64,000 bases of DNA from Terriglobia bacterium (GTDB lineage Bacteria; Acidobacteriota; Polarisedimenticolia; Polarisedimenticolales; CAVOVZ01), in contig CAVOVZ010000013.1 in NCBI GenBank assembly GCA_963699985.1, positions 119,799 to 183,798 on the forward strand, in the 5' to 3' direction. This document shows, piece by piece, positions 10,255 through 47,949 of the stretch. A model generated the notes under the pieces. That model worked only from the letters and a program-made list of their open reading frames with translations, did no database searches and was not told the DNA's origin. Position 1 is the first letter of the stretch; each line of letters opens with the position of its first letter. The position numbers were made by a program, and so were the translations under genes.

Positions 10255-10358
10255 GGTCCCCTCCCGGTTTTTCCCATTCGTACGGGCGGCCACATGGCCG
10301 CGCATGGTCTTGGTCTATGGGGTTGAACGGACAGGAATGCGCGGGCCGAAAAAGAAAA

Positions 10359-12758: not shown

Positions 12759-12791
12759 TTGCCGAACCACATTTCTCGACGTAAAATGTGG
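12759..12791 (+). promoter_or_regulatory. sigma-70-type promoter with overlapping inverted repeat (candidate VapB operator)
   Basis: TTGCCG (12759-12764), a 17-nt spacer, then TAAAAT (12782-12787). The inverted repeat CCACATTT (12767-12774) / AAATGTGG (12784-12791) spans the -10 element, about 20 nt upstream of vapB. Confidence 0.5.
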
Positions 12792-12808
12792 CTGTAACGG
12801 AGGGCGCG

Positions 12809-13419: not shown

Positions 13420-13802
13420 GCGGTTCCACCACGAGACATCAGCCACCCTCCGCTCGGATGCGCGTTGGCGCCCTCGAGCACGATCGTCCCCGATCCGCTT
13501 CGCGGGGACCTTTCGAACTACACCCTGCACCCTCCGGTCGGACCTCGCGGACCGCCCCTGCGCTTCCTCAAGTCACCGGGCAGGCGGCCGATGAAACGTA
13601 CGCGCGGCAGCGGTGGAAGCCGTGGGGCGTGCCGTGCCCGCGCGAATTCGAGATGGAAGCGGGGTTTTGCAGGCCGGAAAGGCGCTTTTCCGCGGGTTCC
13701 GTGATCGGTCGGCGCTCGGTCGAAAGCCCGGCGAACTCGGGATCGGGTCGCGTCTTTCGACCCTGAGGGCGTGAACCGCGACGACTCGACGCTGGAGGAA
13801 AC

Positions 13803-14807: not shown

Positions 14808-14950
14808 CCCGCTTGATTCACGAAGGTCCGTCGCGAGACCGACTTCGGCGAGCTCAGTCGAGCCGTGGAGACGGCCGTGATGACGGGCATCCGGAGAGGC
14901 GAGGACCCGAGACGTACTTGAACAGTACGTCGCAGGGTCCGAGCCTCGAG

Positions 14951-15125
14951 GACGCCCGTCCGCATGGCCGGATCCGCGGGCGCAGCAGGAGCTTCGTGAA
15001 TCATGCGGGCCAGACGGAACCTGCCGGCGAGATCCACCGGTCGCAGCGCTACGCTCGCGACTGCGGGATCCTGATGCTGGACATCGACCACTTCAAGAGA
15101 ATCCACGACCGCGACGACCAGCCCC
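14951..15125 (+). pseudogene. stub of a GGDEF (diguanylate cyclase) domain
   Basis: RSFVNHAGQTEPAGEIHRSQRYARDCGILMLDIDHFKRIHDRD matches the GGDEF N-terminal third (NRRxF...R...lxmlDiDhFKxiND). There is no GG(D/E)EF motif and no start codon, and homology ends near 15125. Confidence 0.4.
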
Positions 15126-32000: not shown

Positions 32001-33994
32001 GTGGTCGCGGGCCTACGACCGCGGCGGGGTGGCACAGTTCCGCCCCGTGCCCGGCGGAGGGTACGTGCTGGGCGGAACGACTTCGTCGCTCGTCCCCGCG
32101 GGGCACGACGCGGATCTGTGGATCGCCCGCACGGACGACTCGGGCCTGACCGAGTCGCCGTGCAGGATCAGCCAGAGCGTGACCGGGCTTGCATCCCCAC
32201 CCCCCGTGGTCCAGGGAGCGACGGACACGGCGCTGGCGCAGCCAGGCGCCGTTCTGGTGATGCCGACGACGGCAGCCGTGCAGGCGTACGCTGCGACCTC
32301 CGGCGAGTGCGTGAACGCCGATGACGACTCGGACGGGGTCCCGAACGTTTCCGACAACTGCCCGGACGTCCCGAATCCGCTCCAGGACGATCTGGACCAA
32401 GATGGGCTCGGTGACCTCTGCGACGCCGACGACGATGGGGACGGCGTTCCGGACACACAGGACAACTGCCCGCGCGCGTCGAATCCGAGCCAGACGGACT
32501 CGGACGGCGACGGGATCGGTGACGTCTGCGATCCCTGCCCGCTCGATGCCGGAAACGACGCCGATGGCGACACCGTCTGCGGCAACATCGACAACTGCCC
32601 GCTCGTCTACAACCCCACGCAGGCGGACGCCGACGCCGACGGCATCGGCGATGCCTGCGACACGTGCCCGTTCGACGCGGCCAACGACGCCGACCGGGAC
32701 GGGCGTTGCGCGAACATTGACAACTGCCCGACGGTCGCGAACCCTGGCCAGCAGGACGGCGACGGCGATGGCCGGGGCGATGCGTGCGACAACTGCCCGA
32801 CCGTCCCCAACGCCGACCAGGCAGATCCCGACGGGGACGGCCTGGGCAGCGCGTGCGATCCCTGTCCTCTTTCTCCGGACAACGACGTGGACCACGACGG
32901 GCTCTGCGGCAACGTGGACAACTGCCCGCTCGTGGCGAACCCCGGCCAGCTCGACGCCGACGCCGACGGGATCGGCGATGCCTGCGACGGCTGTCCGCTG
33001 GACCCGCAGAACGATCGGGACGGCGACCGCGCGTGCGGCAACGCGGACAACTGCCCGACTGTCTTCAACCACGCCCAGCGAGACCAGGACGGGGACGGAA
33101 TCGGCGACCTCTGCGACGTCTGCCCCTCCATCTCGAATCCATCGCAGCAGGACGCCGACGGTGACGGCGCGGGCGACGCGTGCGACTGCCAGCCGCAGGA
33201 CCCGGGCGACCGGCGTCCGGGCGACGTGACGGGAGTCCTCGCGCAGAAGGGCGCAGGTGGAACGCTCACGCTTGACCTGGATGCAGTCGGGTGTCGAGGA
33301 CGACGCGTATTCCATCACCAGGGGAACCATCGCCTCGCTCGCCCCGTCGTCGTACGGGGACTGCGTGGCGACGGGTGTCCTCGTGCGCTCGCACGCGGAT
33401 GCGGAGAATCCACCGGCCGGGCAGGGGTTCTTCTACCTGATTCAGGCCCAGAACTTCGACTGCGGCTCCGGCCCGCTCGGGTACACTTCGGCGGAGGCGG
33501 AGAGGGTCAACGGGAGACCGGGAGCCTGCATCGGAGCATCTCACACCGACGTGCACGCCAGCTCGGACACGAAGGTCTACGGCACCGTGAACGGATCCTA
33601 TTCGAGGACGCTCACCTCGGACGATCAGGTCCAATCGATCCGGGAGGTGCTCTCCTCCGGCGGCGGCTCCTCGCGGTACAGCCGGCTGGAGCACAAGTGG
33701 ACCTTCGCGGTGCCGGCCGGTCGCCGCGTCGAGCTGCACGCGGAGGGATTCCGGACCGCGAGCAGCGACGGCGACGACTTCGCCTTCGAGTGGTCGACGA
33801 ACGGGACCACGTTCAACCGGCTGTCGATGACGAGCCTGCCGCTCGCGGACGGCGACGCGGACCTTGCGGGGATGTTCTCGACCGCCGTGTCCGGAACGGT
33901 CACCGTCCGTGTCGTCGATACCGATCGAACTCCGGGCAACCAGCTCCTCGACACGGTGTCGGTAGACGAGCTGTTCCTGCGCGTCGTGCACTGA
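29060..33994 (+). CDS. very large secreted protein: PPC-like domain, two copies of a 531-aa propeller+TSP3 module, extra thrombospondin type-3 repeats, conserved C-terminal domain. The reading frame is broken twice (pseudogene or assembly error).
   Basis: - Start: ATG 29060 follows a GGAGGTGG RBS, and the signal peptide is VIAAVVSVLLALAPTGRASA.
- PPC-like domain: DPFEQDD...DWLVFHACAGRSYTI is a pre-peptidase C-terminal-like pattern.
- Blades: the motif is DGGFVVLGS..GDLVVLKLDSTGAVQWQK.
- TSP3 repeats: many follow DxDxDGxGDxCDxCP.
- Frames: the frame changes 2>1 near 29692 and 1>2 near 33272.
- ORFs: segments 28994..29788, 29404..34167 and 33257..33994 together cover the gene. Confidence 0.75.
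29512..32670 (+). repeat. tandem duplication, 2 x about 1593 bp, inside the TSP3-repeat gene
   Basis: - Unit 1 spans 29512-31103 and unit 2 spans 31104 to about 32670.
- The offset is 1592 nt before, and 1593 nt after, a 1-nt indel at 29692/29693.
- Shadow ORFs 29847..30086 vs 31440..31679 and 30107..30556 vs 31700..32149 are identical.
- About 9 substitutions fall in the first 450 nt, and about 1 kb is near-identical.
- The units diverge in one TSP3 repeat (about 30870-30950). Confidence 0.9.
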
Positions 33995-34025
33995 TCCCGG
34001 CCCGTTTCGGGGCCGATCGGATCGA

Positions 34026-34094
34026 GCGCCGGCGCGCAGGTGCCGGCGCCCGATCTCGATCCCGAGACGGAGGGAGCCGCGTCGAGGCTCCCTC
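34026..34094. terminator. two GC hairpins between convergent giant genes
   Basis: GCGCCGGC-gcgcaggt-GCCGGCGC (34026-34049) and GAGGGAGCC-gcgtcga-GGCTCCCTC (34070-34094). Confidence 0.4.
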
Positions 34095-34153
34095 GCCATC
34101 GCCGTGGGCCGCCCCCGGAGAAGACAGGCGCCGGCCATGGTCTCGCTCTGCGA

Positions 34154-37100
34154 CTACGGACAGGTGAACTCCAGCGATCCGCTGCACCGGGTCACGACCA
34201 TTGAGGTTGCCAGAGGAGCGTCGTTCCCGACATCGTCCACGACCCGAATCGCGAAGTAGTAGGGGGAGCACGGGTTCAGGCTTGCGGCGCTCGCGCAGCC
34301 ATCCGGAGACTCCGGGGAGACGTTCGACTGAATCACGGTAGCGTACGGAAAGCTCAACTCGTCGATCGGCTGGCCCGAGATTCGAACCTCGGCGTTCCAG
34401 GGGATTCCCGACGCGCCGTCGTCGCCGGTACCCGACCACGTCAACACGGCCGTCGTCTTTCCTGCCGCCCCAATCAGCGTCGGGGTCGCGGGAGCGGCGA
34501 CGTCCGGCTGGGAGATCGCGTACTTCGGGTTTCCGTTGGCAGCATCGAAGTAGGCGATCCGGAGGTTGCCCGCATCGTCCGCCGCGAGCGACGTCGTGCT
34601 CGTCGCCTCGACGGCGCCGTCCGCCACGTCGAAGCGCCAGGCGCTGCCGTCCCACTCTGCGACCTTCGGCAGACCGTTGGCGAGGTAGCTGATGCGCGGA
34701 CGTCCCAGACTGTCCAGAGCGATCGAGTTGCCCGCTCCGTTGTCTCCCGTCGACGCGTCGACGGTCTCGACGCTCCAGACGCCGCCCGTCTTCTTCGCCA
34801 TCCGCAGGCTCCTCGTGGTCGTCGAGTAGAAGCTGATCCGCGGAGTGCCCGCGGAATCGATGGCGAGAGAGCTGACATCGGCGCCCGCCGTGTTCGGGAT
34901 GGCTTCGTTGGTCCACGTCCAGTACCCGTACGGCCCCGATGAGCGAAGGTAGTGCAGCTCGGTGGGATTCGTGTTGTGAAGGAAGAACGAGATCGAGGGG
35001 TGGTCGTCGTGGATTCTCAGAGAGGGGCTCGCACCATCGACTGCCTGCACCTCCACCCAGGACGGGGCCTTCGCGAGCAGGCGGACGCGAGTGGAATTGC
35101 AGTCGGCGAGCGCAATGAAGGGCTGACCCTGGCTATCGAGCGCGAGCGACGTCTTGAGCGTGCAGCCCACGCCGGTCACGTCCTCGGTCTGCCAACCGTG
35201 GCCAACCCTGCGGGCGTACCGGACCTCGAGACGCGTCCCATCCACGTAGCTGATGTGTGCGTTCCCGTCGGACCCGAAGACCAGCGAAGGGAACCAGCCG
35301 CTCGTGACGGCTCCGTCCACGGTCTCGGTCCACCACTCCATGGTTCCGTCGGGCGAGGTGTGGCGACGTGCGAACTTCAGGACGCCATGGGTCCGATCGA
35401 AGTAGGCGATCGAGGCGCGGCCCCATGGATCGAGGGCCATCGAGGCGAGCTCGCCGGCAACCCCGGGAGAGCCGTCCACGGTCGTCGCGAGCCACGGGTG
35501 CTGTTGCGCCGCGAAGATCCGCAGATAGGACCCGGTCTGCGCCGTCGACGGAGGCGACCCGACGCGGACGATCCGCACGTGACCCCGGGCCGTCGTCCAG
35601 CCCGAAGGCACCTGAATCGGGACGTCCTGAAGGCTCGTCGAGCTCGCGACGGTCGACCAGGTCGTTCCGCCGTCATGGGACATCTGCACGTTGATCGGAC
35701 CGGCACCGGTCCACCTCACGAGCTGCGGCGTTCCGGGCTGCCACTGCTCGCCCCCCGTCGGGTACATCAGACCCAGGGGCGGCGTCGTCGACTGGTCGCT
35801 GACGAAAACCGGCGTTCGCTGCGGTGAGGGTCCCGATCCGACCTGGCCGTAGGCGTTGCTGCCCCAGCCGAAGATCTGCCCGTTCGACTTCCTTGCCAGC
35901 GAATGGTCCTCGCCTGCCGCGACCGACGTCACACCGGAAAGACCGGCGACTTGCGCCGGGGTGCTTCGGTTCGTCGTCGTCCCGTCGCCCAGCTGTCCGG
36001 CCACGTTCTGCCCCCAGCTCCAGACCGTTCCATCGGATCGGACCGCGAGGCTGAAGGCGGCCCCCGCCGCAACGGAGGTCACCCCGGAGAGTTGAGCGAC
36101 GGGGACCGGGGTCGTCCGCGTCGTGTCCGTCCCGTCGCCGAGCTGTCCATGGTAGTTGTGGCCCCACGCCCGGACCGTTCCGTCCTGGAGTAGCGCCAGA
36201 GTGAAGTACCCGCCGCCGGAAACCCTGACCGCCCCAGCGAGCCCCGGAACCACCCCCGCGACGGACCGATTCGTTTGCCCGCCGTTCCCGAGCTGACCCA
36301 TCACGTTCGATCCCCAGGTCCAGACGCTGCCGTCGCTCTTGATCGCGGCGGCGTGCAAGTAACCCGCACCGATGGAGGCCACCTCGGACAGCCCTGTCAC
36401 CCGAACCGCCGTGGGCCGGTCCACCGTCGTTCCGTCGCCGAGCTGGCCGACCGAGTTGTCCCCCCACGACCAGACGGTTCCGTCGTTCTCGAGCGCGAGC
36501 GTGAAGTTTGCGCCCGAGGCGAGCGCAACGATCCCCGTGAGACCCGAAACCGCGGCCGGCACGCTCCGGGGAGTCGTGGTCCCGTCGCCGAGCTGGCCGT
36601 CGGTGTTGCCGCCCCACGTCCAGACCGTCCCGTCCTGTCGGAGCGCGGCCGTGTGGAAGATGCCGGCCGCCACGGCGACGACATTCGTCAAAGAGCCGGC
36701 CCGGACAGGAGCGTTCCGGTTCGTCGTCGTCCCGTCGGCGAGCTGGCCCATCGTGTTCATTCCCCAGGCCCACACCGTCCCATCCGCGTGCACGGAGACG
36801 CTGTGTCCGTAGCCCGCCTCGAGATCGACGGGAACCGTGGGAACCAGGGTGTGGAAGGATCGCGTGACGCTCCAGTTTCCCAGCACCCCCTGGGCAGTGA
36901 CCGCGCGCACGTGCCAGTAGTACTGAGCCCCGAGGGCGATCGGAGCCCAGCCGAACGTCTGCGTGCTCGGGTATCCGTCGGCCGCGTAGACGATCGTTCC
37001 CGGCGCGAACGACGGCGATGTCGCGACCTCCAGCGAGTAGGTCTGGGCGAGACAGACGCCATCCCAGTCCAGTGCGACGACGGGGGGCGTGACGCGCGCG

Positions 37101-38974
37101 CCGTCGGCAGGAGAGACCAGGGGCGGCCCGAACGGGATATTGTCCGGCGGTGTGGCCGAGATCCATCCCACCGCGCTCGCGGACGCGCCGGAGGCCTGGC
37201 CGTTGCAGTTGAGGGCCTGCACCGTGTAGGTGAACTGGCCGCAGCCTGGGGAGAGGTCGTCGTACGATGCCGACACCGGGTTCGCAATCTGGACGCCGTT
37301 CCGGAGAAGTCGGTACGAGGAAGCCCCGGCGACTGCCGTCCAGGAGAGCCGGACCCTGTCGGCGAACGTGCCCTGCGAGGCGAGCAGACTGGTCGGTGTA
37401 TCGAGGGCGCAGAACTGGATCATGGGGATGATCGCCCCTTGCGCCGGATCGGTCCCGCGGTTGGCGTTCGTCCCGTACAGGCTCAGCTGCCCGTCCGCCG
37501 TCACGTAGGTTCCTCCCGCGGCGGCGAAGCTATAGAAGCTGTCCTGCGGCAGGTTGATCGTCCCGACCCGGGTCACGAGAAGCGAGCCCATCCAGTTTCC
37601 CGCGGCCCGCGGTTGGACGAGATAGAGGCGTGCCCGGTTCGTGCCCTCGGGGACCGTCTGCGTCACCCAGGTCACGATCATGTAGAGTCCCTCGCTGCCG
37701 CACTGCTGAACGAGGTTCACGTTCTGGATCTGACCGAAGCCGACCGGCGTGCTGCAGCTCGGGAAATCCTCCGGGTAGTTGTAGGTCGAGTACGCGTAGG
37801 TTTTCGTGAACGTCGGGTTCCCGACGATCGGCGTGCCGTCGGAGACGTAGAACTGGATCTCCGCCGGACAGTCGCTCTGCACCGCGACGACGTACCGGCC
37901 GTCCTGAAGCTTGGCGACACCTGCGGCCCCCGCCTTCGTGTACTCCGGGCGGAGGATCTGGGCCGACTGGAGCGCGGGCGCAGCCGGGTCGCTCAGGTCG
38001 AAGAACGCCACGCGAGAGCGCGGCCAGACGGTGCTGCTCGGGGCCTCGAGCGGGATGGCGGCGAAGTCCCCGAACACGCTGAGCGCTCCGGCATGCTTGT
38101 AATTGTGGAGCGGGTCGATGATGAAGTGACTCGGGAAGTTGACGATGCCGTTGTCGGGCGCCGGCGGGTAGTTGGGCGTCCAGCATCCGGTGTTGATCTG
38201 CATTTCCGGCAGCCGGGCAAGGAAGAGATGCGAGTCGCCCTGTCCCGTCCCGGTCATGGCCACGTACGGGTCGTTCTTCAGTCGCGCCACCCCTTCGATG
38301 TGGTTCGTGGTCGGGAAGTCGTTCCAGTACTCCCCGTTCGGCATGTTCGACGCACGAACGTAGAGGTGGTCCGAGCTCGGCCCCAGTCCGAAGAAGGAGC
38401 ATTCGACGTCGGGAACGCACGCGTTGTAGTCGGTCCGATCCACGTTGTGCACGGACACGACCTTGCGTTTGCCGTTGAAATGAGGATCGGCCGAGATCGC
38501 GTCCAGGATCACGCTGTAGGGCGCGTCGGAGCGAGACACGTGGTCGTCCTTCCCCTGGATCTCGAGGGTTAGCGACGTGACGTCTCCGGGGTAGAACCAG
38601 AGCGTCACGCTGTTCTTGAAGAAGTCGTCGTAGGGGCCGCGTACCCACCCTTTCGTCGTGTCGTCGACGGTGACCCGAACCTGCACCACCTGCGTGACGC
38701 AGGGGGCGTACGAGCACCCCAGACTCACCGTCGTCGTGGTCGTCAGGCCCATCTTGTCGGTGAACAGACCGCTCGACGGCTCGGCGCAGAGGTCGGTGCA
38801 CACGGCCTCGGGGTACTCCGGCTCCTCGAGGAGGATCGCCCCGTCGCCTGGGCTCTCCTCGACCGGGAATTGCCGCGGCATCGCACCGGCAGGCTCCAGC
38901 GCCGACAGCAAGCCGCAGAGCGTGATGCCCAGGACTCGGCCAGACCAGCTTCGGATTCCCGCGGAGTTCCTCAT
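34154..38974 (-). CDS. giant secreted multidomain protein B: unknown roughly 500-aa head, two FN3, RCC1 propeller, second propeller-like repeat domain, FN3 (paralogue of protein A)
   Basis: - Start: ATG 38974 follows an AAGGAG RBS, and the signal peptide is VLGITLCGLLSALEPAGA.
- Head: I could not assign the N-terminal domain.
- FN3: the motifs are SWTAVAGASSYRLL and LDWDGV...YYWHVRA.
- RCC1: seven repeats span about nt 35830-36830.
- C-terminal repeats: they follow IAYFDRTHGVLKFA...W.TETVD.
- End: the protein finishes ...CSGSLEFTCP. Confidence 0.85.
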   Translation of the reverse strand: MRNSAGIRSWSGRVLGITLCGLLSALEPAGAMPRQFPVEESPGDGAILLEEPEYPEAVCTDLCAEPSSGLFTDKMGLTTTTTVSLGCSYAPCVTQVVQVRVTVDDTTKGWVRGPYDDFFKNSVTLWFYPGDVTSLTLEIQGKDDHVSRSDAPYSVILDAISADPHFNGKRKVVSVHNVDRTDYNACVPDVECSFFGLGPSSDHLYVRASNMPNGEYWNDFPTTNHIEGVARLKNDPYVAMTGTGQGDSHLFLARLPEMQINTGCWTPNYPPAPDNGIVNFPSHFIIDPLHNYKHAGALSVFGDFAAIPLEAPSSTVWPRSRVAFFDLSDPAAPALQSAQILRPEYTKAGAAGVAKLQDGRYVVAVQSDCPAEIQFYVSDGTPIVGNPTFTKTYAYSTYNYPEDFPSCSTPVGFGQIQNVNLVQQCGSEGLYMIVTWVTQTVPEGTNRARLYLVQPRAAGNWMGSLLVTRVGTINLPQDSFYSFAAAGGTYVTADGQLSLYGTNANRGTDPAQGAIIPMIQFCALDTPTSLLASQGTFADRVRLSWTAVAGASSYRLLRNGVQIANPVSASYDDLSPGCGQFTYTVQALNCNGQASGASASAVGWISATPPDNIPFGPPLVSPADGARVTPPVVALDWDGVCLAQTYSLEVATSPSFAPGTIVYAADGYPSTQTFGWAPIALGAQYYWHVRAVTAQGVLGNWSVTRSFHTLVPTVPVDLEAGYGHSVSVHADGTVWAWGMNTMGQLADGTTTNRNAPVRAGSLTNVVAVAAGIFHTAALRQDGTVWTWGGNTDGQLGDGTTTPRSVPAAVSGLTGIVALASGANFTLALENDGTVWSWGDNSVGQLGDGTTVDRPTAVRVTGLSEVASIGAGYLHAAAIKSDGSVWTWGSNVMGQLGNGGQTNRSVAGVVPGLAGAVRVSGGGYFTLALLQDGTVRAWGHNYHGQLGDGTDTTRTTPVPVAQLSGVTSVAAGAAFSLAVRSDGTVWSWGQNVAGQLGDGTTTNRSTPAQVAGLSGVTSVAAGEDHSLARKSNGQIFGWGSNAYGQVGSGPSPQRTPVFVSDQSTTPPLGLMYPTGGEQWQPGTPQLVRWTGAGPINVQMSHDGGTTWSTVASSTSLQDVPIQVPSGWTTARGHVRIVRVGSPPSTAQTGSYLRIFAAQQHPWLATTVDGSPGVAGELASMALDPWGRASIAYFDRTHGVLKFARRHTSPDGTMEWWTETVDGAVTSGWFPSLVFGSDGNAHISYVDGTRLEVRYARRVGHGWQTEDVTGVGCTLKTSLALDSQGQPFIALADCNSTRVRLLAKAPSWVEVQAVDGASPSLRIHDDHPSISFFLHNTNPTELHYLRSSGPYGYWTWTNEAIPNTAGADVSSLAIDSAGTPRISFYSTTTRSLRMAKKTGGVWSVETVDASTGDNGAGNSIALDSLGRPRISYLANGLPKVAEWDGSAWRFDVADGAVEATSTTSLAADDAGNLRIAYFDAANGNPKYAISQPDVAAPATPTLIGAAGKTTAVLTWSGTGDDGASGIPWNAEVRISGQPIDELSFPYATVIQSNVSPESPDGCASAASLNPCSPYYFAIRVVDDVGNDAPLATSMVVTRCSGSLEFTCP

Positions 38975-39113
38975 CGCTGCTCCTTTCTTCTGCCGGCGGG
39001 ACTCGAGAACGAGGGCGCCCGAGCCCCCCGCCGACACCTGTCCCTCACGTAGATAGATGGAACGGACAGGAATCGAGGAGCCGCTGAAGAAACCGCTCCG
39101 GAAGGAAGGCAGG

Positions 39114-42100
39114 TCAGCGACCCGCCCCGTAGACGGTCAGTCCCGCCCAGTAGAATGGGTGGTCGAGAGCTCGGCCGTCCGCGCCGCGAACCTCTCCGCG
39201 CAGCATCGCGCGCTGGAGCCGTCCCAGCGCCGCCGCCGGCCGCAGGTCCGGAGAGAGCTTCCGGTAGAGCTCGGGAAGCACGTCCGCCGACGTGGCATCG
39301 TCCATCTCCCACAGGGATGCGACCACGGAGCTCGCACCCGCCTTCAGAAAGGCGCGGACGAGCCCCTCCCGCTCGTCGCCCGGGGCGTCCCCGCCGGTCA
39401 GGCCGACATCGGCCCCCGTGTCGCAGCCGCTGAGGACCACCAGCCTTGCCGCGATCGGGCGCGCAGCGATCTCCTCGGCGGTGAGTCCGCCATCCGTGCC
39501 GCCGTCGGAGGCCAGCTCGATCCGGGAACGTGATGGGGTCAAGCGATCGGTTCGCCCGTGAGCCGCCAGGTGGATCCACTCGCTCGAGGGTGCGCGCGCC
39601 CGGTAGGCAGTCTCCGTCGCCTCCGCGCCGGTGCGGGTCCACGCGGCGCCCGGCACGAGCGCGGCCACGCGGAGGACTTCGGCCGCGGCGCCGGGAAGCC
39701 GGGTGCCCCTGCCGCCGATGTCCGGGTCGCCGAGAGCCACCATCCCGCGCGCGGACGATCCCGCGCGGCGTCGAGAGAAGAGCGCCTCGGCCGCGGGCAG
39801 GAGGGAGACGTTCCGTCCCTCGATCATCGGCCGCCCGTCGAACCGGAGGGCCGGGAAGGGGACGGAGTGGAGCCACTCGTTGGCGACCACCAGCACCTCG
39901 TCGGCGTTCGCGAGATCCGTGGCCAGGGGATCCAGAAGAGCAGCACCGAGGCGAGTCATCGCCTGGCGCCACGCGGCGGTCACCGGAGCGTCGGCGGGGT
40001 CGGGCCGACCGGGGTACCGGGCCAGGTCGGCGATTTCCCGAACGACGGCAGGGGGGGCGGTCAATCGCCGTGCCTTCAATCCGTCGCGTCTGGCGACGAA
40101 CGCCACGACGCGGTCGTTCAGAACGAAGTAGTCGACCAGGACCTCTCGATCGCGAAGAACCGCGCGGAGCTGAGACGAGGGGACGACGGGGAGCGACCAC
40201 GGCGGGATGGGCTCCCCGCCCCGCGTGCCGGCGTCGTCTTCGAAGGAGGGGGGGACGAGCTTCTGCGCGAAGTCCCGTGCCTTGCCGAGCCTCGCGACGC
40301 GGTACGCGTTCTCGACCTCGCCGTTGTCCAGGTAGAGACGGACCAGTTCCCGATACGGCTCGATCCGGTCGTCCAGAATCGCGGCCCGCCAGGGCGGACG
40401 CCGCACGCCGCTGCGGGCCCGCTCGACCTCGGCCACGGCGCGCTCGCAACGTCGGATCGCACCTGCGCGGTCGCCCTCGAGAGCCGACAGACGCGCGCTC
40501 AGGAATTGGTACCGCCATTCGTTGCTCGCGCCCCGCTTCGTCGGACCCAGGGGAGCGAGCCGATCCAGCAGGCCCCTCGCCGCGGGCAGGTTGCCGGAGA
40601 GGAGATGGGCATGGGCCGCGAGGAGCTCGCACTCCGTCCACCCGGCGGGGTTCCTTTGCTCGTGGTAGAGCGTCGCGGCCACTTCGAGTCTCGACACGGC
40701 TGCCTCCGCCCCGGCGGCTCCCACTCGCAGGTCGAGATTCGCCAGGTCGATCAGGCTCGTGGCCCGGTCCACCGCCTGCCCGGTCTCGGTGGAGCACCGG
40801 AGCGCTTCCTCCAGCGCCTTCCGAGCTTCCTCGCGGTCTCCCGAGCGCTCTCGGACGAAACCCAGGCTGCGAAGCACCCGGCAACGTCCCAGCTCGCTCT
40901 TCGTCTTCCCGAGGAGCGACGAGGCGGACTCGAGCTCCGCGAGAGCCTCGGGGAAGTCTCCCAGAAGGGCGAGGTTCGCTCCCAGGTAGTAGCGCCGCCA
41001 CGCCAGCAGGGACAGATCGGATGACTGCGTCGCCGCCTCGACGGCCGCGCGCAGATCGACCATTGCGTCGTCGTAGCGGCCGAGATCGAACAGCGCGGAC
41101 GCGCGGCACTCGAGAATGATGCTGAGCAGACCGAGACCTCCGGAGGCCCGGACCGAAGAAACCTCCGCATCGAGGATTGGAATCGCCGCTTCCGCATTCC
41201 CCTCTTCCACGAGCGTCATGGTCCGGATGCATGCGACCGTTGCCTGGAGGTCGGCCGACTCCGCGCTCGCCGCGAGCTTCCGCGCGCGTTCCAGCCACCT
41301 GTGCCCTTCTTCCGTGCGGCCCAGCTCGCGCAGGACCAGCGACAAGGACGCGGACGCGTCTGCCTCCGTGGAAGCGACTCCGGCCCGCCGGGCGATCTCC
41401 GCCGCGCGGCGACACTCGGCGACGGCACCGGCCGGATTGCCGCGATCACGATGGAGCCGACACAGGTTGAGCCGCTCGAGCGCCTCGGTCTCCGCGTCGC
41501 CGCTTTCTCGTGCGATCGCCGTCGCCTGCTGGTGGAGGGACAACTCTGCGTCGGAATCCCCCTGGGCTCCCACGATCACCGCGAGGGTCCCGAGGGATCT
41601 CCCCTCCTCCGCCCGGTCTCCCAGCTCTCGGGTCAGCACCAGGGACCGCTCGATGGCGGATCTCGCGGAGTCGAGATCCCCGACCGCGCGATAGGCGACC
41701 CCCAGGTTGTTCTCGACCACCGAGAGGAGTCGAAGATCCCCGACGCGCTCCACGACGTCCCGGGCCTCTCGCAGCGCGCCGATCGCCTTCTCGCCACCGA
41801 AGATGTTGACCTTCACGCCGGCAATGGCGTTCGTGCACCAGGCCACCTCGCGCTCGTCACCGATCCTCTCGAACGTGGCGAGGGCCGATTCGAATTTCTC
41901 GAGGGCGCTCTCGGGGCGCGCGTCGCTGTAGTCCTCCTTCGCCGCCTTCTTCCGCTGGACGGCCTCGGCCCGCTCCGCGCGCTCCTCGGGGGTCCACGCC
42001 CGGAAGACCGCGATCCGGCCCGCGGGCCGCCGGTCGCCGAAGACGTCCGCGTACGCCGCTGCCAGGGACTCGGCAAGACGCAGCGAGGTCGCGTCGCCGA

Positions 42101-42350
42101 GCGCCCCCAGGCGGTGCATGGCCTCGTAGGCGGCGGCGCGATCGGCGCGCACCAGGGCGTGGATCGTCCGCGCGCCTTCCTTCGGCGGGGCGCGTCGGAG
42201 CCGCTCGATCAGGTCGTCCGCCTGCTTCTCTCCCGCAAGGCAGGGAAGGACCAGGAGCGCCGCCGACACCGAGGCTGCGAGCAAACCGGCGAACGATGCG
42301 AGACTCAGGCGCGTTGCCGTGGTGCCGACGCGTTCGAACGCTCCGTTCAT
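39114..42350 (-). CDS. exported TPR-repeat CHAT-domain (caspase-like) protease
   Basis: ATG 42350 overlaps the anti-sigma stop (ATGA). The N-terminal hydrophobic segment is LSLASFAGLLAASVSAALLVLPCLAG. About 600 aa of TPR-like helical repeats follow. The C-terminal CHAT domain has WIHLAAHG (His) and LVVLSGCDTG (Cys). The 477 upstream codons of ORF 39114..43781 are rejected. Confidence 0.9.
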   Translation of the reverse strand: MNGAFERVGTTATRLSLASFAGLLAASVSAALLVLPCLAGEKQADDLIERLRRAPPKEGARTIHALVRADRAAAYEAMHRLGALGDATSLRLAESLAAAYADVFGDRRPAGRIAVFRAWTPEERAERAEAVQRKKAAKEDYSDARPESALEKFESALATFERIGDEREVAWCTNAIAGVKVNIFGGEKAIGALREARDVVERVGDLRLLSVVENNLGVAYRAVGDLDSARSAIERSLVLTRELGDRAEEGRSLGTLAVIVGAQGDSDAELSLHQQATAIARESGDAETEALERLNLCRLHRDRGNPAGAVAECRRAAEIARRAGVASTEADASASLSLVLRELGRTEEGHRWLERARKLAASAESADLQATVACIRTMTLVEEGNAEAAIPILDAEVSSVRASGGLGLLSIILECRASALFDLGRYDDAMVDLRAAVEAATQSSDLSLLAWRRYYLGANLALLGDFPEALAELESASSLLGKTKSELGRCRVLRSLGFVRERSGDREEARKALEEALRCSTETGQAVDRATSLIDLANLDLRVGAAGAEAAVSRLEVAATLYHEQRNPAGWTECELLAAHAHLLSGNLPAARGLLDRLAPLGPTKRGASNEWRYQFLSARLSALEGDRAGAIRRCERAVAEVERARSGVRRPPWRAAILDDRIEPYRELVRLYLDNGEVENAYRVARLGKARDFAQKLVPPSFEDDAGTRGGEPIPPWSLPVVPSSQLRAVLRDREVLVDYFVLNDRVVAFVARRDGLKARRLTAPPAVVREIADLARYPGRPDPADAPVTAAWRQAMTRLGAALLDPLATDLANADEVLVVANEWLHSVPFPALRFDGRPMIEGRNVSLLPAAEALFSRRRAGSSARGMVALGDPDIGGRGTRLPGAAAEVLRVAALVPGAAWTRTGAEATETAYRARAPSSEWIHLAAHGRTDRLTPSRSRIELASDGGTDGGLTAEEIAARPIAARLVVLSGCDTGADVGLTGGDAPGDEREGLVRAFLKAGASSVVASLWEMDDATSADVLPELYRKLSPDLRPAAALGRLQRAMLRGEVRGADGRALDHPFYWAGLTVYGAGR

Positions 42351-42979
42351 CGGATCTCGAAGGCGATCAGGCGAGTCTCCGCGACGGATCGGTCTCCCCG
42401 CATCGCGCGCACCCTCCAGAGAAGAGCTGCCGGTCGTCGCGCTCCGGGCGGCACCGGCCAGACCGCCTCGGTGATGGGAGGACGCGCCTCGAGCGTCGCG
42501 AGCGTGGACCCATCCGGGCTGACCAACGTCACGAGATACCGATCGGCGTCGGGACGAGGAGTCCAGCGGAACGCGATCTCGTTCTCCCGAGCCACGGTCC
42601 CGGCCGCGGGTGCGAGGGACACCATGCCGTCTCCCGCGCCCGCACGGTATTGCGTCTCGGAAGCCGGGACTGCGCCCTGGCGTACTCCATGAAGGCCGGC
42701 GATCAGGGCGGCCACCAGGACGGCTGCCGCGGCCCCCCCCAGGACGACTCGCGTCGATGGAACCCTGCGCGATGCCGCTTGCGCCTTGCCCATGGCGAGC
42801 AGCTCCGGTGGAACCGGCTCGCCGGCGTCCGTCATGCGAAGCTCCGTCACTCCCGCCCGGCAGTCCGCGCATCGGGCCAGATGCCGCTCGAACTCTCCTG
42901 CGGCCTCGTCGCCCAGCGTGCCGTCGAGGTACGCCGCGGTGGTCAGCTCGTCGGGATGGCGTGCGGGGCCGGATCTCAC
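42347..42979 (-). CDS. anti-sigma factor (zf-HC2), single-pass membrane protein with an extracytoplasmic domain
   Basis: GTG 42979 overlaps the sigma-factor stop (GTGA). AAYLDGTLGDEAAGEFERHLARCADCRAGV contains Hx3Cx2C. The TM segment is VVLGGAAAAVLVAALIAGL, followed by a roughly 120-aa C-terminal beta-rich domain. Confidence 0.8.
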   Translation of the reverse strand: MRSGPARHPDELTTAAYLDGTLGDEAAGEFERHLARCADCRAGVTELRMTDAGEPVPPELLAMGKAQAASRRVPSTRVVLGGAAAAVLVAALIAGLHGVRQGAVPASETQYRAGAGDGMVSLAPAAGTVARENEIAFRWTPRPDADRYLVTLVSPDGSTLATLEARPPITEAVWPVPPGARRPAALLWRVRAMRGDRSVAETRLIAFEIR

Positions 42980-43908
42980 GTCTGCGCCTCCCAGGACGAC
43001 CAGCCCGCTCCGAACGCTCCCTCCAGGTCGTCTCGTGTGATCCGTGCCTCGCCGAGGGCGGAGCGGATCGCGGCCAGCGCGTCGCGCGTCGTGCGCTCGA
43101 TCTCCGCCCCGGACACCCCGATCGCCTTCGCCGCGGTCCCGACGTCGAGGCCGTCCCGAAACCGGACGGCCAGGACGAGCTGCTGCCGGGGGGCCAGCCC
43201 GGCGACGGCTCGTGCGAATGCCCGCTCGGCCTGTCGCTCCTCCAGGCTCCGCTCGGGGTCCCGCCCCGAGGCCGCGAGCGCGAACGTCCGGGAAGTCTGC
43301 TCGGCGACGACGCTGACGCAATCGATGGGGATCGTCGGCTGGCGCCACGTCCACCGCGACAGCAGCCGCCAGCGCTGGCTCGGAGACAGGGAGCGCTCGA
43401 CCCGCGCCACGCGCTCGGCGAGCTCCTGCGGCTCCAACCGCACACCGTGGCGCCTCTCCAGCCGCTCGCGGACCTCGTCGAGCGGTCTCCCGTCTCGAAA
43501 GCGGTAGGCGACGATCCGGCGATCGATCGCGTCCAGCCTCGCCATGCTCGAGAAGGCCCGGTAGCGGCCGCGTCGCGCGCGCTCGTGGTCGAGGACGAGA
43601 TTGCGGACGACCACGGCAAGGTACGTGGAGAACCTGCACGGGGCCTCCGGTCGATACCGGTAGCGCCGCACGCGGCGCATCCCGTCGCTGCGCAGGGCGG
43701 CGCAGACGAAGAGGAAAAGGTCCATCCGCTCGTCGTACGTCCGAGCGAACGGGCGGATGGCGGCGAGAATCGTCGCCGCATGCTCGTCGAGGAAGGCGTC
43801 CCACGTGAGGTCGCCGGCGGGACGGTGCGCCCCGGAGTCCACGACGGCGCCTTCGTCGATCGGACCCCCGCCCCTGAACTGGAGGATCGAGCCTCTGAAC
43901 GCGGACAT
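42976..43908 (-). CDS. sigma-70 family (ECF-like) RNA polymerase sigma factor with an extra region-4-like insert
   Basis: Region 2 reads DLFLFVCAALRSD...FSTYLAVVVRNLVLDHERAR. Region 4 reads LAPRQQLVLAVRFRDGLDVGTAAKAIGVSGAEIERTTRDALAAIRSAL. A second similar segment reads LDAIDRRIVAYRFRDGRPLDEVRERLERRHGVRLEPQELAERVARVERSL. The start is uncertain (ATG 43908 or TTG 43944). Confidence 0.8.
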   Translation of the reverse strand: MSAFRGSILQFRGGGPIDEGAVVDSGAHRPAGDLTWDAFLDEHAATILAAIRPFARTYDERMDLFLFVCAALRSDGMRRVRRYRYRPEAPCRFSTYLAVVVRNLVLDHERARRGRYRAFSSMARLDAIDRRIVAYRFRDGRPLDEVRERLERRHGVRLEPQELAERVARVERSLSPSQRWRLLSRWTWRQPTIPIDCVSVVAEQTSRTFALAASGRDPERSLEERQAERAFARAVAGLAPRQQLVLAVRFRDGLDVGTAAKAIGVSGAEIERTTRDALAAIRSALGEARITRDDLEGAFGAGWSSWEAQT

Positions 43909-44385
43909 CGGGCAACATATACCCCATGAGGGGACGAGCGACAACGCGCGGGGAGGCTTGCGCCGCTGTCCGGCGCTCCGCAGATGCGCTGCGAGTCGGC
44001 CGCCGCCCTGTTAGGAGGATCCTCCGGAGCCCGGAGGGGTCTGAATCGGCCCCGGGCCTTGAAGTCGCACGGGGCGCGAAATCGAGGCGACGCGCTGCGC
44101 AGCGAACGGGAACCGTTATCTCGCGCGCGGGCCGGACCGACCCCTGGCGCCCGGAGAAAAGAGGTTGACCGGAGCAGGTGTGTCCGTGCAAGATCGCGCC
44201 GATTCGCGGGAACGGGAGGTTCTCGTGGGCGGTTCTCGTCGACTTTGGCGTGGGCTTGGCGACCTACCGATCAGAGGCTGCGGCGACGACATCGCCGATC
44301 CACCGTCTCAGTGGCCATGGACGAATGCCCGGCGCGTCGCGCAGGGGAAACGCAGGACCATTCGATTCCGATCCAGGGAGGGGCT

Positions 44386-45540
44386 ATGACCGAACACGAA
44401 CGCTCGATCTGGAAGGTCATGCAGGCCAAGGGGTACTCGCGTCGGGACTTCCTCCAGTTCTGCTCGTACGCCGCCGCGGTCGCGGGGATCGAGGCGGCGC
44501 ATCTCGGCAGCGTCGTTGCCGCTTTCGAGCAGAAACCTCGCCCGCCGGTCGTGTGGCTCCACTTCCAGGAGTGCACGTGCTGCAGCGAGTCGTTCATCCG
44601 CTCGTCCCACCCCCTCGTCGCCGACGTGCTGCTGGACGTCCTCTCGCTGGACTACACCGAGACGCTGCAGGCGGCGGCCGGGTTCCAGGCGGAGAAGTGC
44701 CTGAAGGACACGATGCAGAAGTACGCGGGGCAGTACTTCCTCCTCGTCGAGGGCTCCGTCCCGGTCAACGACGGAGGCATCTACTGCACCATCGCCGGAC
44801 GAACGGCGCGGCAGATTCTGGAGGAAGCCGCGGCGGGGGCCGCCGCGATCATCGCCTGGGGGAGCTGCGCCTCGAACGGCTGCATTCAGGCCGCCAGCCC
44901 GAACCCGACCGGCGCGACCCCGATCCACGAGCTGGTCAAAAAGACCGTGATCAACGTGCCGGGATGCCCCCCTATCGCCGAGGTGATGCTCGGCGTGGTG
45001 ACGCACATCCTGGTGTTCCGGAATCCTCCCGAGCTGGACGGCCAGAACCGCCCGAAGGAGTTCTACGGCCGTCGCGTGCACGATACCTGCTATCGCAGGC
45101 CGTACTACGACGCCGGGCTGTTCGTGAACGCCTGGGACGACGAGCACGCCCGCAACGGGTACTGCCTCTACAAGATGGGCTGCCGCGGACCGGTCACCTA
45201 CAACGCGTGCTCGGTCACGAAGTGGAACGGCGGCGTCAGCTATCCGATCCAGTCCGGGCACGGCTGCATCGGCTGCAGCGAGCGGAACTTCTGGGACAAC
45301 GGGCCGTTCTACCGCCACCTCGCCGCGTTCCCCGGCTTCGGGATCGAGTCCACTGCGGACACCGTGGGAACGGTGGTGGGAGTGGTCGCCGCCGCGGGAG
45401 TCGCGGCCCATGCTGTGAGCACCAACATCCGCAAGCGCCGCCTGATCGCGGAGCACATGGACGAGTCGGAGAAACCGCAGCCGCCCGCGGGCGGTGGCAA
45501 GACCGGCGAGCGAGCGCCGGGAGGGGGTGAGCCACGATGA
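44386..45540 (+). CDS. hyaA: [NiFe] hydrogenase small subunit, group 1 membrane-bound uptake type, Tat-exported
   Basis: The Tat motif is SRRDFLQF. Also present are VVWLHFQECTCCSESFIRS, AWGSCASNGCIQAA, GCPP, distal-cluster motifs, and a C-terminal TM anchor (VVGVVAAAGVAAHAV). Confidence 0.95.
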   Translation: MTEHERSIWKVMQAKGYSRRDFLQFCSYAAAVAGIEAAHLGSVVAAFEQKPRPPVVWLHFQECTCCSESFIRSSHPLVADVLLDVLSLDYTETLQAAAGFQAEKCLKDTMQKYAGQYFLLVEGSVPVNDGGIYCTIAGRTARQILEEAAAGAAAIIAWGSCASNGCIQAASPNPTGATPIHELVKKTVINVPGCPPIAEVMLGVVTHILVFRNPPELDGQNRPKEFYGRRVHDTCYRRPYYDAGLFVNAWDDEHARNGYCLYKMGCRGPVTYNACSVTKWNGGVSYPIQSGHGCIGCSERNFWDNGPFYRHLAAFPGFGIESTADTVGTVVGVVAAAGVAAHAVSTNIRKRRLIAEHMDESEKPQPPAGGGKTGERAPGGGEPR

Positions 45541-47252
45541 AACGCGTCGTCGTCGATCCGATCACTCGCATCGAGGGACACCTGCGCATCGAGGCGGTCG
45601 TGGAGAACGGCCGGATCACCGATGCCTACAGCGCCGGCACCATGGTTCGCGGGTTCGAGCGGATCCTGAAGGGGCGCGATCCCCGCGACGCGTGGGCCTT
45701 CACCGAGCGCGCGTGCGGCGTCTGCACCACGGTCCATGCGCTCGCCAGCGTCCGCGCGGTCGAGGACGCCCTGGGGATCAGCGTCCCGCAGAACGCCGAG
45801 CTGATCCGGAACCTGATGTTCTGCACGCAGTACGTGCAGGACCACGTGGTGCATTTCTACCATCTCCACGCGCTGGACTGGGTGGACATCGTCAAGGCGC
45901 TCTCCGCCGATCCGGCGGAGACGTCGCGTATCGCCCAATCCATTTCGCCGTGGCCCAAGAGCTCCCCCGCCTACTTCGCTGCGATCCAGACGCGGTTGAA
46001 GACGTTCGCCGGGAGCGGCCAGCTGGGGATCTTCGCGAACGGCTACTGGGGGCACCCGGAGTACCGGCTCCCGGCCGAGGTGAACCTGCTGGGCGTCGCG
46101 CACTACCTGGAGGCACTCGAGTGGCAGAAGGAGATCGTCAAGATCCACACGATCTTCGGCGGCAAGAACCCCCATCCGAACTACCTGGTGGGGGGGGTTC
46201 CGTGCTCGCTCAACATCGACGAGGTCAACGCCGTCAACACCGAGCGGCTCAACCACGTGGCTCGCCTCATCCGCGATGCGATCGTGTTCGTGGAGCAGGT
46301 GTATCTGCCGGACCTCATCGCCGTGGCGGGGTTCTACAAGGACTGGGCGGCGATCGGAGGCGGCCTGAAGAACTACCTCGCCTACGGCGACCTCCCCACC
46401 GCCGGCTACGGCCAGCCGGAGTCGTTCAAGTTCCCCCGCGGGGCGATCCTCGACCGGGACCTGAGCCGGGTCCACGAGGTCAACGGCCGCGACGCCGAGG
46501 AGATCAAGGAGTACATCGCCCACTCCTGGTACTCCTACTCCAAAGGCGATTCCGCCGGGCTCCATCCGTGGCAGGGCGAGACCGAGTTCAACTACACCGG
46601 GCCCAAGCCGCCGTACGAGAACCTCGACGTCTCCGGCAAGTACTCCTGGCTCAAGACCCCGCGCTGGAAGGACCATCCGATGGAGGTCGGCCCGCTGGCG
46701 CGCTTGCTCGTGGCGTTCGCGCACGGCCACGCGGAAGTCAAGGAGGTCGTGACCGAGGCGCTGGCCAAGCTCGACGTCCCCGTCGCCGCCCTGTTCTCGA
46801 CCCTCGGCCGCACGGCCGCCCGGGGGCTCGAGACGAAGCTCGTGGCGCGCTGGATGCAGGGCTTCTACGACGACCTGATCGCCAACGTCCGGTCCGGCAA
46901 CGTGCGAACGTTCACACCCGAGAAGTGGGACCCATCGACCTGGCCCGCGACCGCGGAAGGGGTGGGACTCTCCGAAGCGCCGCGGGGTGCGCTGGCGCAC
47001 TGGATCCGCATCAAGGACGGGCAGATCGACAACTACCAGCTCGTCGTGCCCAGCACCTGGAACGCCTCGCCCCGGGACGCCAAGGGACAGCGGTCCTCGT
47101 ACGAGGAGGCCCTGATCGGAACGCCGGTGGCGAACGTCGAGCAGCCGCTCGAGATCCTGCGCACGATCCACTCCTTCGATCCGTGCATCGCCTGCGCCGT
47201 GCATCTGTACGACCCGGAAGGCAGGCACGTGCACGACCTGACGGTGGTCTGA
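45537..47252 (+). CDS. hyaB: [NiFe] hydrogenase large subunit
   Basis: N-terminal RIEGHLRIE and RACGVCTTVH, with C-terminal DPCIACAVH. The start overlaps the small-subunit stop (ATGA). Confidence 0.95.
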   Translation: MKRVVVDPITRIEGHLRIEAVVENGRITDAYSAGTMVRGFERILKGRDPRDAWAFTERACGVCTTVHALASVRAVEDALGISVPQNAELIRNLMFCTQYVQDHVVHFYHLHALDWVDIVKALSADPAETSRIAQSISPWPKSSPAYFAAIQTRLKTFAGSGQLGIFANGYWGHPEYRLPAEVNLLGVAHYLEALEWQKEIVKIHTIFGGKNPHPNYLVGGVPCSLNIDEVNAVNTERLNHVARLIRDAIVFVEQVYLPDLIAVAGFYKDWAAIGGGLKNYLAYGDLPTAGYGQPESFKFPRGAILDRDLSRVHEVNGRDAEEIKEYIAHSWYSYSKGDSAGLHPWQGETEFNYTGPKPPYENLDVSGKYSWLKTPRWKDHPMEVGPLARLLVAFAHGHAEVKEVVTEALAKLDVPVAALFSTLGRTAARGLETKLVARWMQGFYDDLIANVRSGNVRTFTPEKWDPSTWPATAEGVGLSEAPRGALAHWIRIKDGQIDNYQLVVPSTWNASPRDAKGQRSSYEEALIGTPVANVEQPLEILRTIHSFDPCIACAVHLYDPEGRHVHDLTVV

Positions 47253-47262
47253 GGAGGGCGCC

Positions 47263-47949
47263 ATGACCAAGCAGCACGTCGTTGCCTACCGGCGGATCTA
47301 CGTGTGGGAGCTGCCGGTGCGGCTCTACCACTGGGTGAACGCGATCTGTGTCGCGGTCCTCATCGTCACAGGCTTCCTCATCGGCAAGCCGCTGGCGATC
47401 ACCTACTCGCACGAGGCCTACCAGCAGTACTGGTTCGGCACCGTGCGGTTCCTGCACTTCGTCGCCGCGTTCGTCTACTTCTTCAATTTTCTCGTGCGCA
47501 TCTACTGGGGCTTCGTCGGCAACGCGCACGCGCGCTGGCAGAACTTCATCCCCTGGACGCGGACCCAGTGGCGCGAGATCGTGGACGTGCTGCGTGTGGA
47601 CATCGCCCAGACGAAGTTCGAGCGTCCGGTCGCAATCGGGCACAACGCACTGGCCGGTCTCATCTACTTCGCGTCGTTCCTCGTGTTTCTATTCCAGGCG
47701 GTAACCGGCTTCGCGCTGTACTCGGCGCTCAGCAAGTCGCTCCTGCCGCGGATGTTCGGCTGGGTCGTGCCGCTGATGGGCGGCGATTTCGCCGTGCGCC
47801 AGTGGCATCACGCGTTCCTCTGGTTCTTCGTCGTGTTCACGATCGTCCACGTTTACCTGGTCTTTTACCACGACTACGTGGAGGGGCGCGGCACGACCTC
47901 CTCGATGGTCGGAGGATGGAAGTTCGAGCGGGAGGATGCGATCAAGTAG
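47263..47949 (+). CDS. hyaC: Ni/Fe-hydrogenase b-type cytochrome subunit
   Basis: The product has four TM helices. YVWELPVRLYHWVNA...RFLHFVAAF...GHNALAG...WHHAFLW carries conserved haem-ligand His residues. Confidence 0.9.
   Translation: MTKQHVVAYRRIYVWELPVRLYHWVNAICVAVLIVTGFLIGKPLAITYSHEAYQQYWFGTVRFLHFVAAFVYFFNFLVRIYWGFVGNAHARWQNFIPWTRTQWREIVDVLRVDIAQTKFERPVAIGHNALAGLIYFASFLVFLFQAVTGFALYSALSKSLLPRMFGWVVPLMGGDFAVRQWHHAFLWFFVVFTIVHVYLVFYHDYVEGRGTTSSMVGGWKFEREDAIK

Follow-up and report, generated by a model that had tools for sequence, protein, structure and literature searches.

A trio of sigma factor, zinc-finger anti-sigma factor and predicted exported TPR-CHAT protein that resembles a split form of DdvA

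The closest characterised relative of the system considered here is the DdvA–DdvS pair. The Myxococcus xanthus protein DdvA joins a zinc-finger anti-sigma domain to ~900 periplasmic residues of tetratricopeptide repeat (TPR)–CHAT type (PMC11506125). Cryo-electron microscopy showed DdvA to be dimeric, with every active site turned towards the linker of the partner, and DdvA without TPR-CHAT becomes exposed to RseP (PMC11506125). Self-cleavage of DdvA as the site-1 step has been proposed and is unproven, and DdvA-like proteins have been reported only in Myxococcota and one Comamonas (PMC11506125). DdvS, a sigma factor of the extracytoplasmic function (ECF) type, reads GTAA-N16-CGT promoters and controls an island of CRISPR and cyclic-oligonucleotide-based anti-phage signalling system (CBASS) genes (PMC6061681). 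A second precedent is craspase, a type III-E assembly of Cas7-11 with Csx29, Csx30 and an ECF sigma factor, in which Csx29 performs RNA-activated protein cleavage (PMC10028731). Here, we compare with these systems a window of 64,000 nucleotides (the whole stretch of DNA that was analysed, positions 119,799 to 183,798 of contig CAVOVZ010000013.1, GenBank assembly GCA_963699985.1, from a Terriglobia bacterium; G+C ~68%), in which the genes of a sigma factor, an anti-sigma factor and a TPR-CHAT protein (hereafter the trio) lie ahead of the gene of a giant RCC1/propeller protein. The original prediction, made from the letters of this stretch, knew of no characterised system of this composition; DdvA–DdvS and craspase are such precedents (PMC11506125, PMC10028731). 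The general kind of system is already known, and what is new relative to DdvA is the split arrangement, the unusual sigma architecture and the predicted giant-protein regulon.

Between 34.1 and 43.9 kb, third-position G+C picks out four genes on the minus strand, with a weaker signal for the anti-sigma gene, and all four gene boundaries were reproduced by an independent gene call from the public copy of the contig:

42976-43908, minus strand: sigma factor gene, 310 aa; sigma2 and sigma4, with a middle domain of ~85 residues (~120-205) between them that is conserved and predicted to be folded
42347-42979, minus strand: anti-sigma factor gene, 210 aa; cytoplasmic zinc finger H33-x3-C37-x2-C40, a motif of the sigma-binding kind, membrane helix 78-99, linker and predicted Ig/FN3-like domain (~118-210)
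39114-42350, minus strand: TPR-CHAT gene, 1078 aa; predicted signal peptide (~residues 1-39), ~30 TPR-type helices and a caspase-like CHAT domain
34154-38974, minus strand: giant B gene, 1606 aa, with its ATG at 38974 preceded by AAGGAG; the secreted product has seven RCC1 repeats, and its C-terminal repeat region is propeller-like (RCC1/WD40_RLD 4e-113)

The sigma stop is joined to the anti-sigma start in GTGA at 42979-42976, the anti-sigma stop to the CHAT start in ATGA at 42350-42347, and giant B starts 139 nt after the CHAT stop behind an AAGGAG ribosome-binding site, all as originally placed. Searches of Pfam and NCBIfam likewise found the domains of all four proteins where the prediction had put them.

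Relatives of the sigma factor numbered 53 in a collection of 5.8 billion proteins (54 matches counting the query); all are of ~280-350 aa, and the named ones come from Acidobacteriota-type metagenome genomes. A scan of a genome collection gave 6 loci and a metagenome scan supplied more; altogether, 47 further loci were fetched for comparison, and 39 non-redundant sigma-family loci were used for the motif count described below. The order of sigma factor, zinc-finger anti-sigma factor and signal-peptide TPR-CHAT protein was found in 20/20 independent loci that reach more than ~250 nt past the anti-sigma gene, most of them in metagenome-assembled genomes labelled Acidobacteriota. In nearly all 20, the anti-sigma stop and the CHAT start overlap by 4 or 1 nt, which suggests that translation of the two genes is coupled and the amounts of their proteins matched. 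The recurrent linkage of such sigma/anti-sigma pairs to CHAT genes, on which the original prediction had been staked, is borne out, the CHAT gene being next in line in every one of these loci. We consider it quite likely that the trio is one signalling unit. As for the wider proposal of a four-gene operon, the genes share a strand, but the conserved unit is the trio and giant B is not conserved beside it. In the closest relative (CHAT 64% identical), a small membrane protein gene follows CHAT and giant B is absent beside the trio, and in the close relative L040 an RCC1 homologue lies 2.5 kb upstream of the trio on the opposite strand. The trio of L040 is itself apparently broken (11236-14983 of that locus), with an anti-sigma factor of 145 aa and TPR-CHAT in pieces of 344 aa and 733 aa, which may reflect decay or an assembly error in a long-read contig.

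These comparisons bear on one view of the TPR-CHAT protein, namely that its gene is a mere co-transcribed output gene, perhaps for a protease that matures secreted proteins, and contributes nothing to sigma release. Downstream output genes are common in ECF-type operons, and secreted proteins are always near the trio. However, the flanking secreted proteins differ by clade (RCC1, MopE-motif, BNR, M11 peptidase) while the CHAT gene is constant, the overlap of CHAT with the anti-sigma gene is nearly universal, and fused zinc-finger-TPR-CHAT proteins with a homologous sigma partner exist, as set out below. On this evidence, a mere output role appears quite improbable. Common ancestry of the flanking proteins was considered separately and rejected on the lack of mutual similarity among the RCC1 giant B, MopE-motif, BNR and 360-aa proteins.

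Some neighbours recur within parts of the family. In a distant sigma clade, a conserved secreted protein of ~1060-1130 aa with MopE-type metal-binding motifs is encoded directly upstream of the sigma gene (L002, L004, L006, L009, L011, L012, L014, L015, L017, L018, L020, L021, L029, L036 and L041-L043), and a clear hairpin terminator follows the MopE-motif gene in most loci where the intergenic sequence was read. A conserved secreted protein of ~360 aa without a Pfam match is convergent after CHAT in L004, L006, L041, L042 and L043 and lies upstream in L038.

The TPR-CHAT protein matches CHAT (PF12770) with 156.5 bits against a cut-off of 24 (E 1.4e-45), its residues 798-1075 covering profile positions 4-288 of 289, and TPR_12 at 4e-28. 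Its AlphaFold2 model (predicted local distance difference test score, pLDDT, 84.5) shows a long helical-repeat solenoid with a caspase-like alpha/beta domain. The best solved matches of this model in Foldseek were separase (5e-16), DdvA (8RW5/8ROT, 5-7e-15) and Csx29 (2.5e-12), the match to the DdvA periplasmic domain having 16% identity and a target template modelling (TM) score of 0.51-0.54. Separase, the best structural match, is alike in combining a helical-repeat scaffold with a caspase-like domain, but it is a much larger eukaryotic protein of the cytoplasm or nucleus and has nothing to do with sigma control. At the sequence level, the NCBIfam Csx29 model matches the TPR-CHAT protein at 3e-6, while DdvA was not among the phmmer matches listed at E up to 1, where the best CHAT-domain match was Csx29 (E ~0.3). 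The link to DdvA therefore rests on a fused relative together with the fold search.

Four homologues of the window CHAT protein (P0276, P0285, P0293 and P0305) carry zf-HC2, a membrane helix, TPR and CHAT in one protein, and one of them, P0293, matches DdvA by sequence (5.5e-10). At the two loci examined (P0305 and P0293), the gene before the fused gene encodes a sigma factor of 302-312 aa that is homologous to the present family (hhalign 97.5-98%). A sister split family has a homologous sigma factor of 257 aa (hhalign 99.8%), and its trio is followed by Big_5/PD40 and RCC1 proteins. The fused proteins with their homologous sigma neighbours indicate, on sequence grounds, that the anti-sigma and TPR-CHAT proteins of the window are the split form of a DdvA-like protein, within a superfamily whose parts are either fused or adjacent. 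The likeness to DdvA (PDB 8ROT/8RW5) extends to the N-terminal zinc-finger domain, the one membrane helix, the flexible linker, TPR-CHAT with a dyad at 45-residue spacing and the same overall fold (Foldseek 5e-15, predicted model). The differences are that TPR-CHAT is here a separate protein with its own predicted signal peptide, that the anti-sigma factor bears an Ig-like periplasmic domain in its stead, and that the host is probably a member of Acidobacteriota, whereas DdvA-like proteins were reported from Myxococcota and one Comamonas.

An intact His/Cys dyad had been predicted for the CHAT domain, and this stands with one correction: of the two His in HLAAHG, it is the second, H931 (codon 39558-39560), that is catalytic and pairs with C976 (codon 39423-39425). 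Alignment via the fused relative P0293 maps H862/C907 of DdvA onto H931/C976, both pairs being spaced by 45 residues, and H931 and C976 are invariant in 10/10 full-length orthologues across ~35-65% sequence identity. The dyad thus aligns with that of DdvA and is conserved in orthologues, and its invariance across its own family argues for retained catalytic function of the TPR-CHAT protein. The proposed N-terminal export segment also found support: the N-termini recovered from 18/18 orthologues resemble Sec signal peptides, in that they begin with positive charge and have a hydrophobic core and small residues in the cleavage region.

The anti-sigma factor matches zf-HC2 at 1.6e-7, and its features were read from an alignment of 25 orthologues. 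Positive charges lie on the N-terminal side of its membrane helix (78-99); the linker is variable and Pro/Ala/Gly-rich; and a near-invariant R112 (codon 42644-42646) stands at the linker/domain boundary, ahead of the periplasmic domain. The predicted periplasmic domain of ~95 residues is conserved and ends in FE(V/I)R (here FEIR; 42347-42359). In a profile search, giant proteins with matches to Pfam Ig_Rha78A_N and fn3 proved to contain 4-21 copies of this domain in tandem, which points to an Ig/FN3-like module; the extracytoplasmic domain of the original prediction is hence upheld as a conserved domain, predicted to be of this type, at residues ~118-210. FEIR and R112 may each mark a place where an Arg-directed clan CD protease docks or cuts, and the conservation of the anti-sigma C-terminus may be partly due to the overlapping ribosome-binding site and start codon of CHAT. 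Two further occurrences of the domain were sought and rejected. A single-copy form fused to a long, CHAT-sized protein was absent from the best 150 of 2124 matches (1.84 billion representatives), and the match within giant B was not significant (E 0.03-0.16 at residues 620-697; Pfam Ig_Rha78A_N reached 0.0034).

The sigma factor departs from the plain ECF type, being 310 aa long, with a folded middle domain, and ~100 residues longer than a typical ECF sigma factor. It matches Sigma70_r4 at 1.2e-7 (31.6 bits vs a cut-off of 24.1), Sigma70_r2 at 7e-4 (19.8 bits, below the Pfam cut-off of 24) and TIGR02937 sigma70-ECF with 51 bits vs a cut-off of 42.9. The ~85 residues between sigma2 and sigma4 are conserved in a 21-sequence alignment, and in the AlphaFold2 model (pLDDT 79.7) they form a folded helical domain with pLDDT of 90-97. 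The FliA/WhiG model aligns residues 141-285 to region 3-4, and each of the 50 best-ranked PDB matches listed for the model is a sigma factor of three domains (sigma D/28, sigma 32, sigma A, sigma S, SigB), with 0 ECF factors among them; the TM-scores of these matches are low (0.2-0.3) because the domains are loosely arranged. The modelled middle domain is probably equivalent to sigma3. By the marks of an ECF factor, the protein is mixed: the absence of sigma3, the short sigma2-sigma4 linker and the length of ~200 residues are not found, nor is an autoregulated promoter with conserved -35 and -10, the promoter of the trio being of housekeeping type, while an anti-sigma partner encoded by an overlapping gene and bearing the HxxxCxxC motif is present. 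DdvS, in comparison, is described as ECF, whereas the window sigma factor has a sigma3-like domain. Two cysteines are conserved in the sigma family, C91 (in APCRF) being invariant and C69 nearly so, which is unusual for sigma2.

ATTCCTGTCCGTTC stands upstream of giant B and likewise upstream of another giant, giant A:

39059-39073, minus strand: ATTCCTGTCCGTTCC, a promoter-like motif that lies within the 139-nt gap, 85 nt ahead of the giant B start codon; 23.5 bits
10324-10338, minus strand: second motif copy ATTCCTGTCCGTTCA, upstream of giant A; 24.7 bits
4225-10254, minus strand: giant A, an RCC1 giant of ~2009 aa; the start at 10254 was chosen by ribosome-binding site and signal peptide, and an in-frame ATG also stands at 10305

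Giant A is a paralogue of giant B, with 57% identity over the C-terminal ~890 residues, and its motif lies 29 kb away from the trio. Scanned with a weight matrix built from other loci only, the 64-kb window has just two sites that exceed 12 bits, one ahead of giant A and the other ahead of giant B. Across the 39 loci (286 kb), the core 8-mer was observed 23 times vs 4.5 expected, and the 15-nt form 14 times vs 0 in 30 simulations. In ~20 related loci, the motif is always intergenic and points at a gene flanking the trio, including genes of ~1100-aa MopE-type, 360-aa secreted and BNR-repeat proteins, an M11 peptidase and the divergent gene cluster of L040. It ends 7-11 nt before the start codon of the conserved 360-aa gene, a start that is fixed by the signal peptide, and no positions are conserved beyond -5 to +10 of the motif, where a -35 element was looked for. 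From this spacing and the lack of a conserved -35, we infer that the motif is of the -10 or extended -10 type (CGTTnA, with TG upstream of it) and propose it as the target of the trio sigma factor. The GTAA-N16-CGT pattern of the DdvS type was tried and does not fit. The motif is absent upstream of the sigma gene in the window and present there in L010 and L016. A GTCCGTC core also occurs in the related families: as GAGCAA-N13-GTCCGTC before the downstream propeller and RCC1 genes of the sister family, and as GGAAAY-N11-12-GTCCGTC at two intergenic sites and one site at the sigma gene 3' end, before the fused gene, in the fused-type locus L044.

Since the motif stands before secreted-protein genes that flank the trio in other loci, those genes, here giants A and B, are probably its regulon, a reading that we hold with fair but not strong confidence. 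The prediction that giant B is regulon output fits the motif that it shares with genes flanking the trio in related loci. The giants at 26.6-34 kb, neighbours that had been named as possible further output, lie on the opposite (plus) strand and have no motif, and this part of the prediction is not supported.

The trio itself appears to be read from a promoter of another kind:

43916-43944, minus strand: putative housekeeping-type promoter of the trio, read from the sequence; TTGTCG, 17-nt spacer, TATATG, 7 nt to the sigma ATG

The sigma gene start has no ribosome-binding site, and a promoter whose TATATG ends 7 nt before the ATG suggests that the trio transcript is probably leaderless. Related loci have TTGnnn-N17/18-(TG)nTAnnnT at the same position, and the two closest relatives have TATACC or TATACA 6-7 nt before the sigma start codon in the same layout; a strict consensus promoter scan did not list the TTGTCG-N17-TATATG of the trio. 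The original prediction had also weighed whether a terminator or an independent promoter separates giant B from the trio, and the answer is divided. A terminator scan of 38700-44300 found none, the 139-nt gap included, and RNA folding of the gap was not better than that of shuffled sequence (z -1.7), but the gap does contain the promoter-like motif of giant B. With no terminator in the gap, giant B may be transcribed both by read-through from the trio and from its own promoter.

Taken together, we lean towards reading the trio as a module for envelope signalling in which a TPR-CHAT anti-sigma factor of the DdvA type is split in two, with a proposed site-1 cleavage and a regulon. As in RseA/DegS/RseP, a single-pass anti-sigma factor with a periplasmic domain would be trimmed outside the membrane before an intramembrane cut frees the sigma factor. 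The site-1 enzymes known to us are serine proteases (DegS or Prc type) or signal peptidase, whereas the enzyme proposed here would be an operon-encoded caspase-fold cysteine protease. In such a scheme, the exported TPR-CHAT protein would dock on the periplasmic domain or linker of the anti-sigma factor, the two proteins together reproducing DdvA. An envelope signal would activate the H931/C976 site, and the activated TPR-CHAT protein would cut the anti-sigma factor outside the membrane, with a candidate site after R112 in the flexible linker. An RseP-type intramembrane protease would complete the degradation and release the sigma factor, which would read TGTCCGTT promoters (of the form wTTyyTGTCCGTTnA, with extended -10 features and no conserved -35) and, in the window, switch on giants B and A. 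An extended -10 motif without a -35 element fits the extra sigma3-like domain of the sigma factor. The supposition that CHAT makes the site-1 cut in the anti-sigma factor is grounded in the fused relatives, the invariance of the dyad and the DdvA model, and we place it close to even, though just on the doubtful side.

The main rival to site-1 cleavage is that the TPR-CHAT protein is a sensor or guard, which binds the periplasmic domain of the anti-sigma factor and keeps a different protease away from it, in the way that RseB protects RseA; any protease activity of its own would be aimed at other periplasmic or surface proteins, e.g. the regulon giants, as a feedback on their export or assembly. 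The sister family (P0213-P0241; loci L046 and L047) speaks for a guard, since it keeps the same gene order but has HLAT(Y/F)G, with Tyr/Phe at the catalytic His and the Cys kept. The regulon genes all encode large secreted proteins, and the periplasmic domain of the anti-sigma factor is of the same Ig/FN3-like type as the tandem arrays in giant surface proteins. In addition, the only DdvA role shown by experiment is that of a bulky TPR-CHAT blocking RseP (PMC11506125). On the other hand, the dyad is invariant within its own family, at the range of identities given above, and the trio has no conserved neighbour that could be an alternative site-1 protease, HtrA-like/PDZ proteins occurring in some loci only. 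Both the shielding role and the redirected protease activity seem to us unlikely, though they deserve attention.

Several points weigh against site-1 cleavage or the promoter assignment. The CHAT proteins of the sister family may be pseudo-proteases or may use another His, and with Tyr/Phe at that position the module may not depend on the canonical dyad. A protease role is only proposed even for DdvA. The signal peptides were judged by eye and by hydrophobicity rather than by a dedicated predictor. A motif without a conserved -35 could be the site for another regulator and not a sigma promoter, and the promoter of the trio in the window is of housekeeping type and not autoregulated. The full proposal, that of an undescribed sigma family with a sigma3-like domain, a zinc-finger membrane anti-sigma factor, release by a trans-acting periplasmic caspase-fold site-1 protease and -35-independent TGTCCGTTnA promoters for giant surface proteins, is offered tentatively and we would sooner doubt it than accept it as a whole.

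Craspase (PDB 8EEY) is alike in its genetic linkage of an ECF sigma factor to a TPR-CHAT protease, whose fold is related (Foldseek 2.5e-12), and its cleaved partner Csx30 presumably restrains the sigma factor. It is, however, cytoplasmic, RNA-guided and CRISPR-linked, whereas the window locus is without CRISPR genes and has a protease with a predicted signal peptide and a membrane zinc-finger anti-sigma factor. The likeness to both precedents raises the view that the trio is a phage-defence regulator like DdvA–DdvS, which would sense a periplasmic phage protein and switch on defence genes: the closest characterised system controls a CBASS/CRISPR island (PMC11506125, PMC6061681), and the TPR-CHAT fold matches DdvA and Csx29. 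Against this, PADLOC gave the four proteins no defence-family match beyond generic TPR, no CRISPR or CBASS was found among the called and annotated genes around the loci examined, and the motif-bearing genes encode secreted repeat proteins and peptidases. The regulon predicted for the window thus differs from that of DdvA–DdvS in consisting of giant secreted proteins, not a CBASS/CRISPR island, and a defence role appears very improbable. A defence-island regulon in the window itself was rejected, the neighbours being hydrogenase and secreted repeat proteins.

Divergent from the trio lies an NiFe hydrogenase operon (small subunit, large subunit, cytochrome b; 43984-47949, plus strand), with no apparent functional link. 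Downstream of giant B, a plus-strand giant with thrombospondin type 3 repeats converges with it. The open reading frame of the latter (29404-34167, plus strand, 1587 aa) shifts codon phase at ~33.1-33.2 kb, beyond which the coding signature is carried by the open reading frame 33230-33994 (plus strand). This change of phase suggests a frameshift or two genes, with a real end at 33994 and no overlap with giant B. Two G+C-rich hairpins without T-runs at 34027-34095, between the two convergent genes, may be a bidirectional terminator missed by the consensus scan.

A full-text literature search found no paper on a separate periplasmic TPR-CHAT protein partnered with an anti-sigma factor, and the main text of the ECF classification paper (PMC7826278) does not mention CHAT. 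The loci described here extend TPR-CHAT-controlled sigma factors from a few Myxococcota to a wider set of genomes, mostly Acidobacteriota metagenome genomes, in a family that joins a three-domain sigma architecture with an ECF-style anti-sigma factor and whose predicted motif gives a candidate regulon of giant secreted RCC1/propeller proteins. Self-cleavage by the CHAT domain of DdvA is hard to settle because the protease is fused to its substrate. In the window system, the proposed protease and substrate are separate proteins, so that binding, cleavage in trans and dyad mutants are separately testable, which offers a cleaner route to the DdvA question. If the proposed cleavage is true, a cysteine protease acting in trans would for the first time be the site-1 enzyme of anti-sigma proteolysis, and the DdvA hypothesis would gain a model whose parts are genetically separable.

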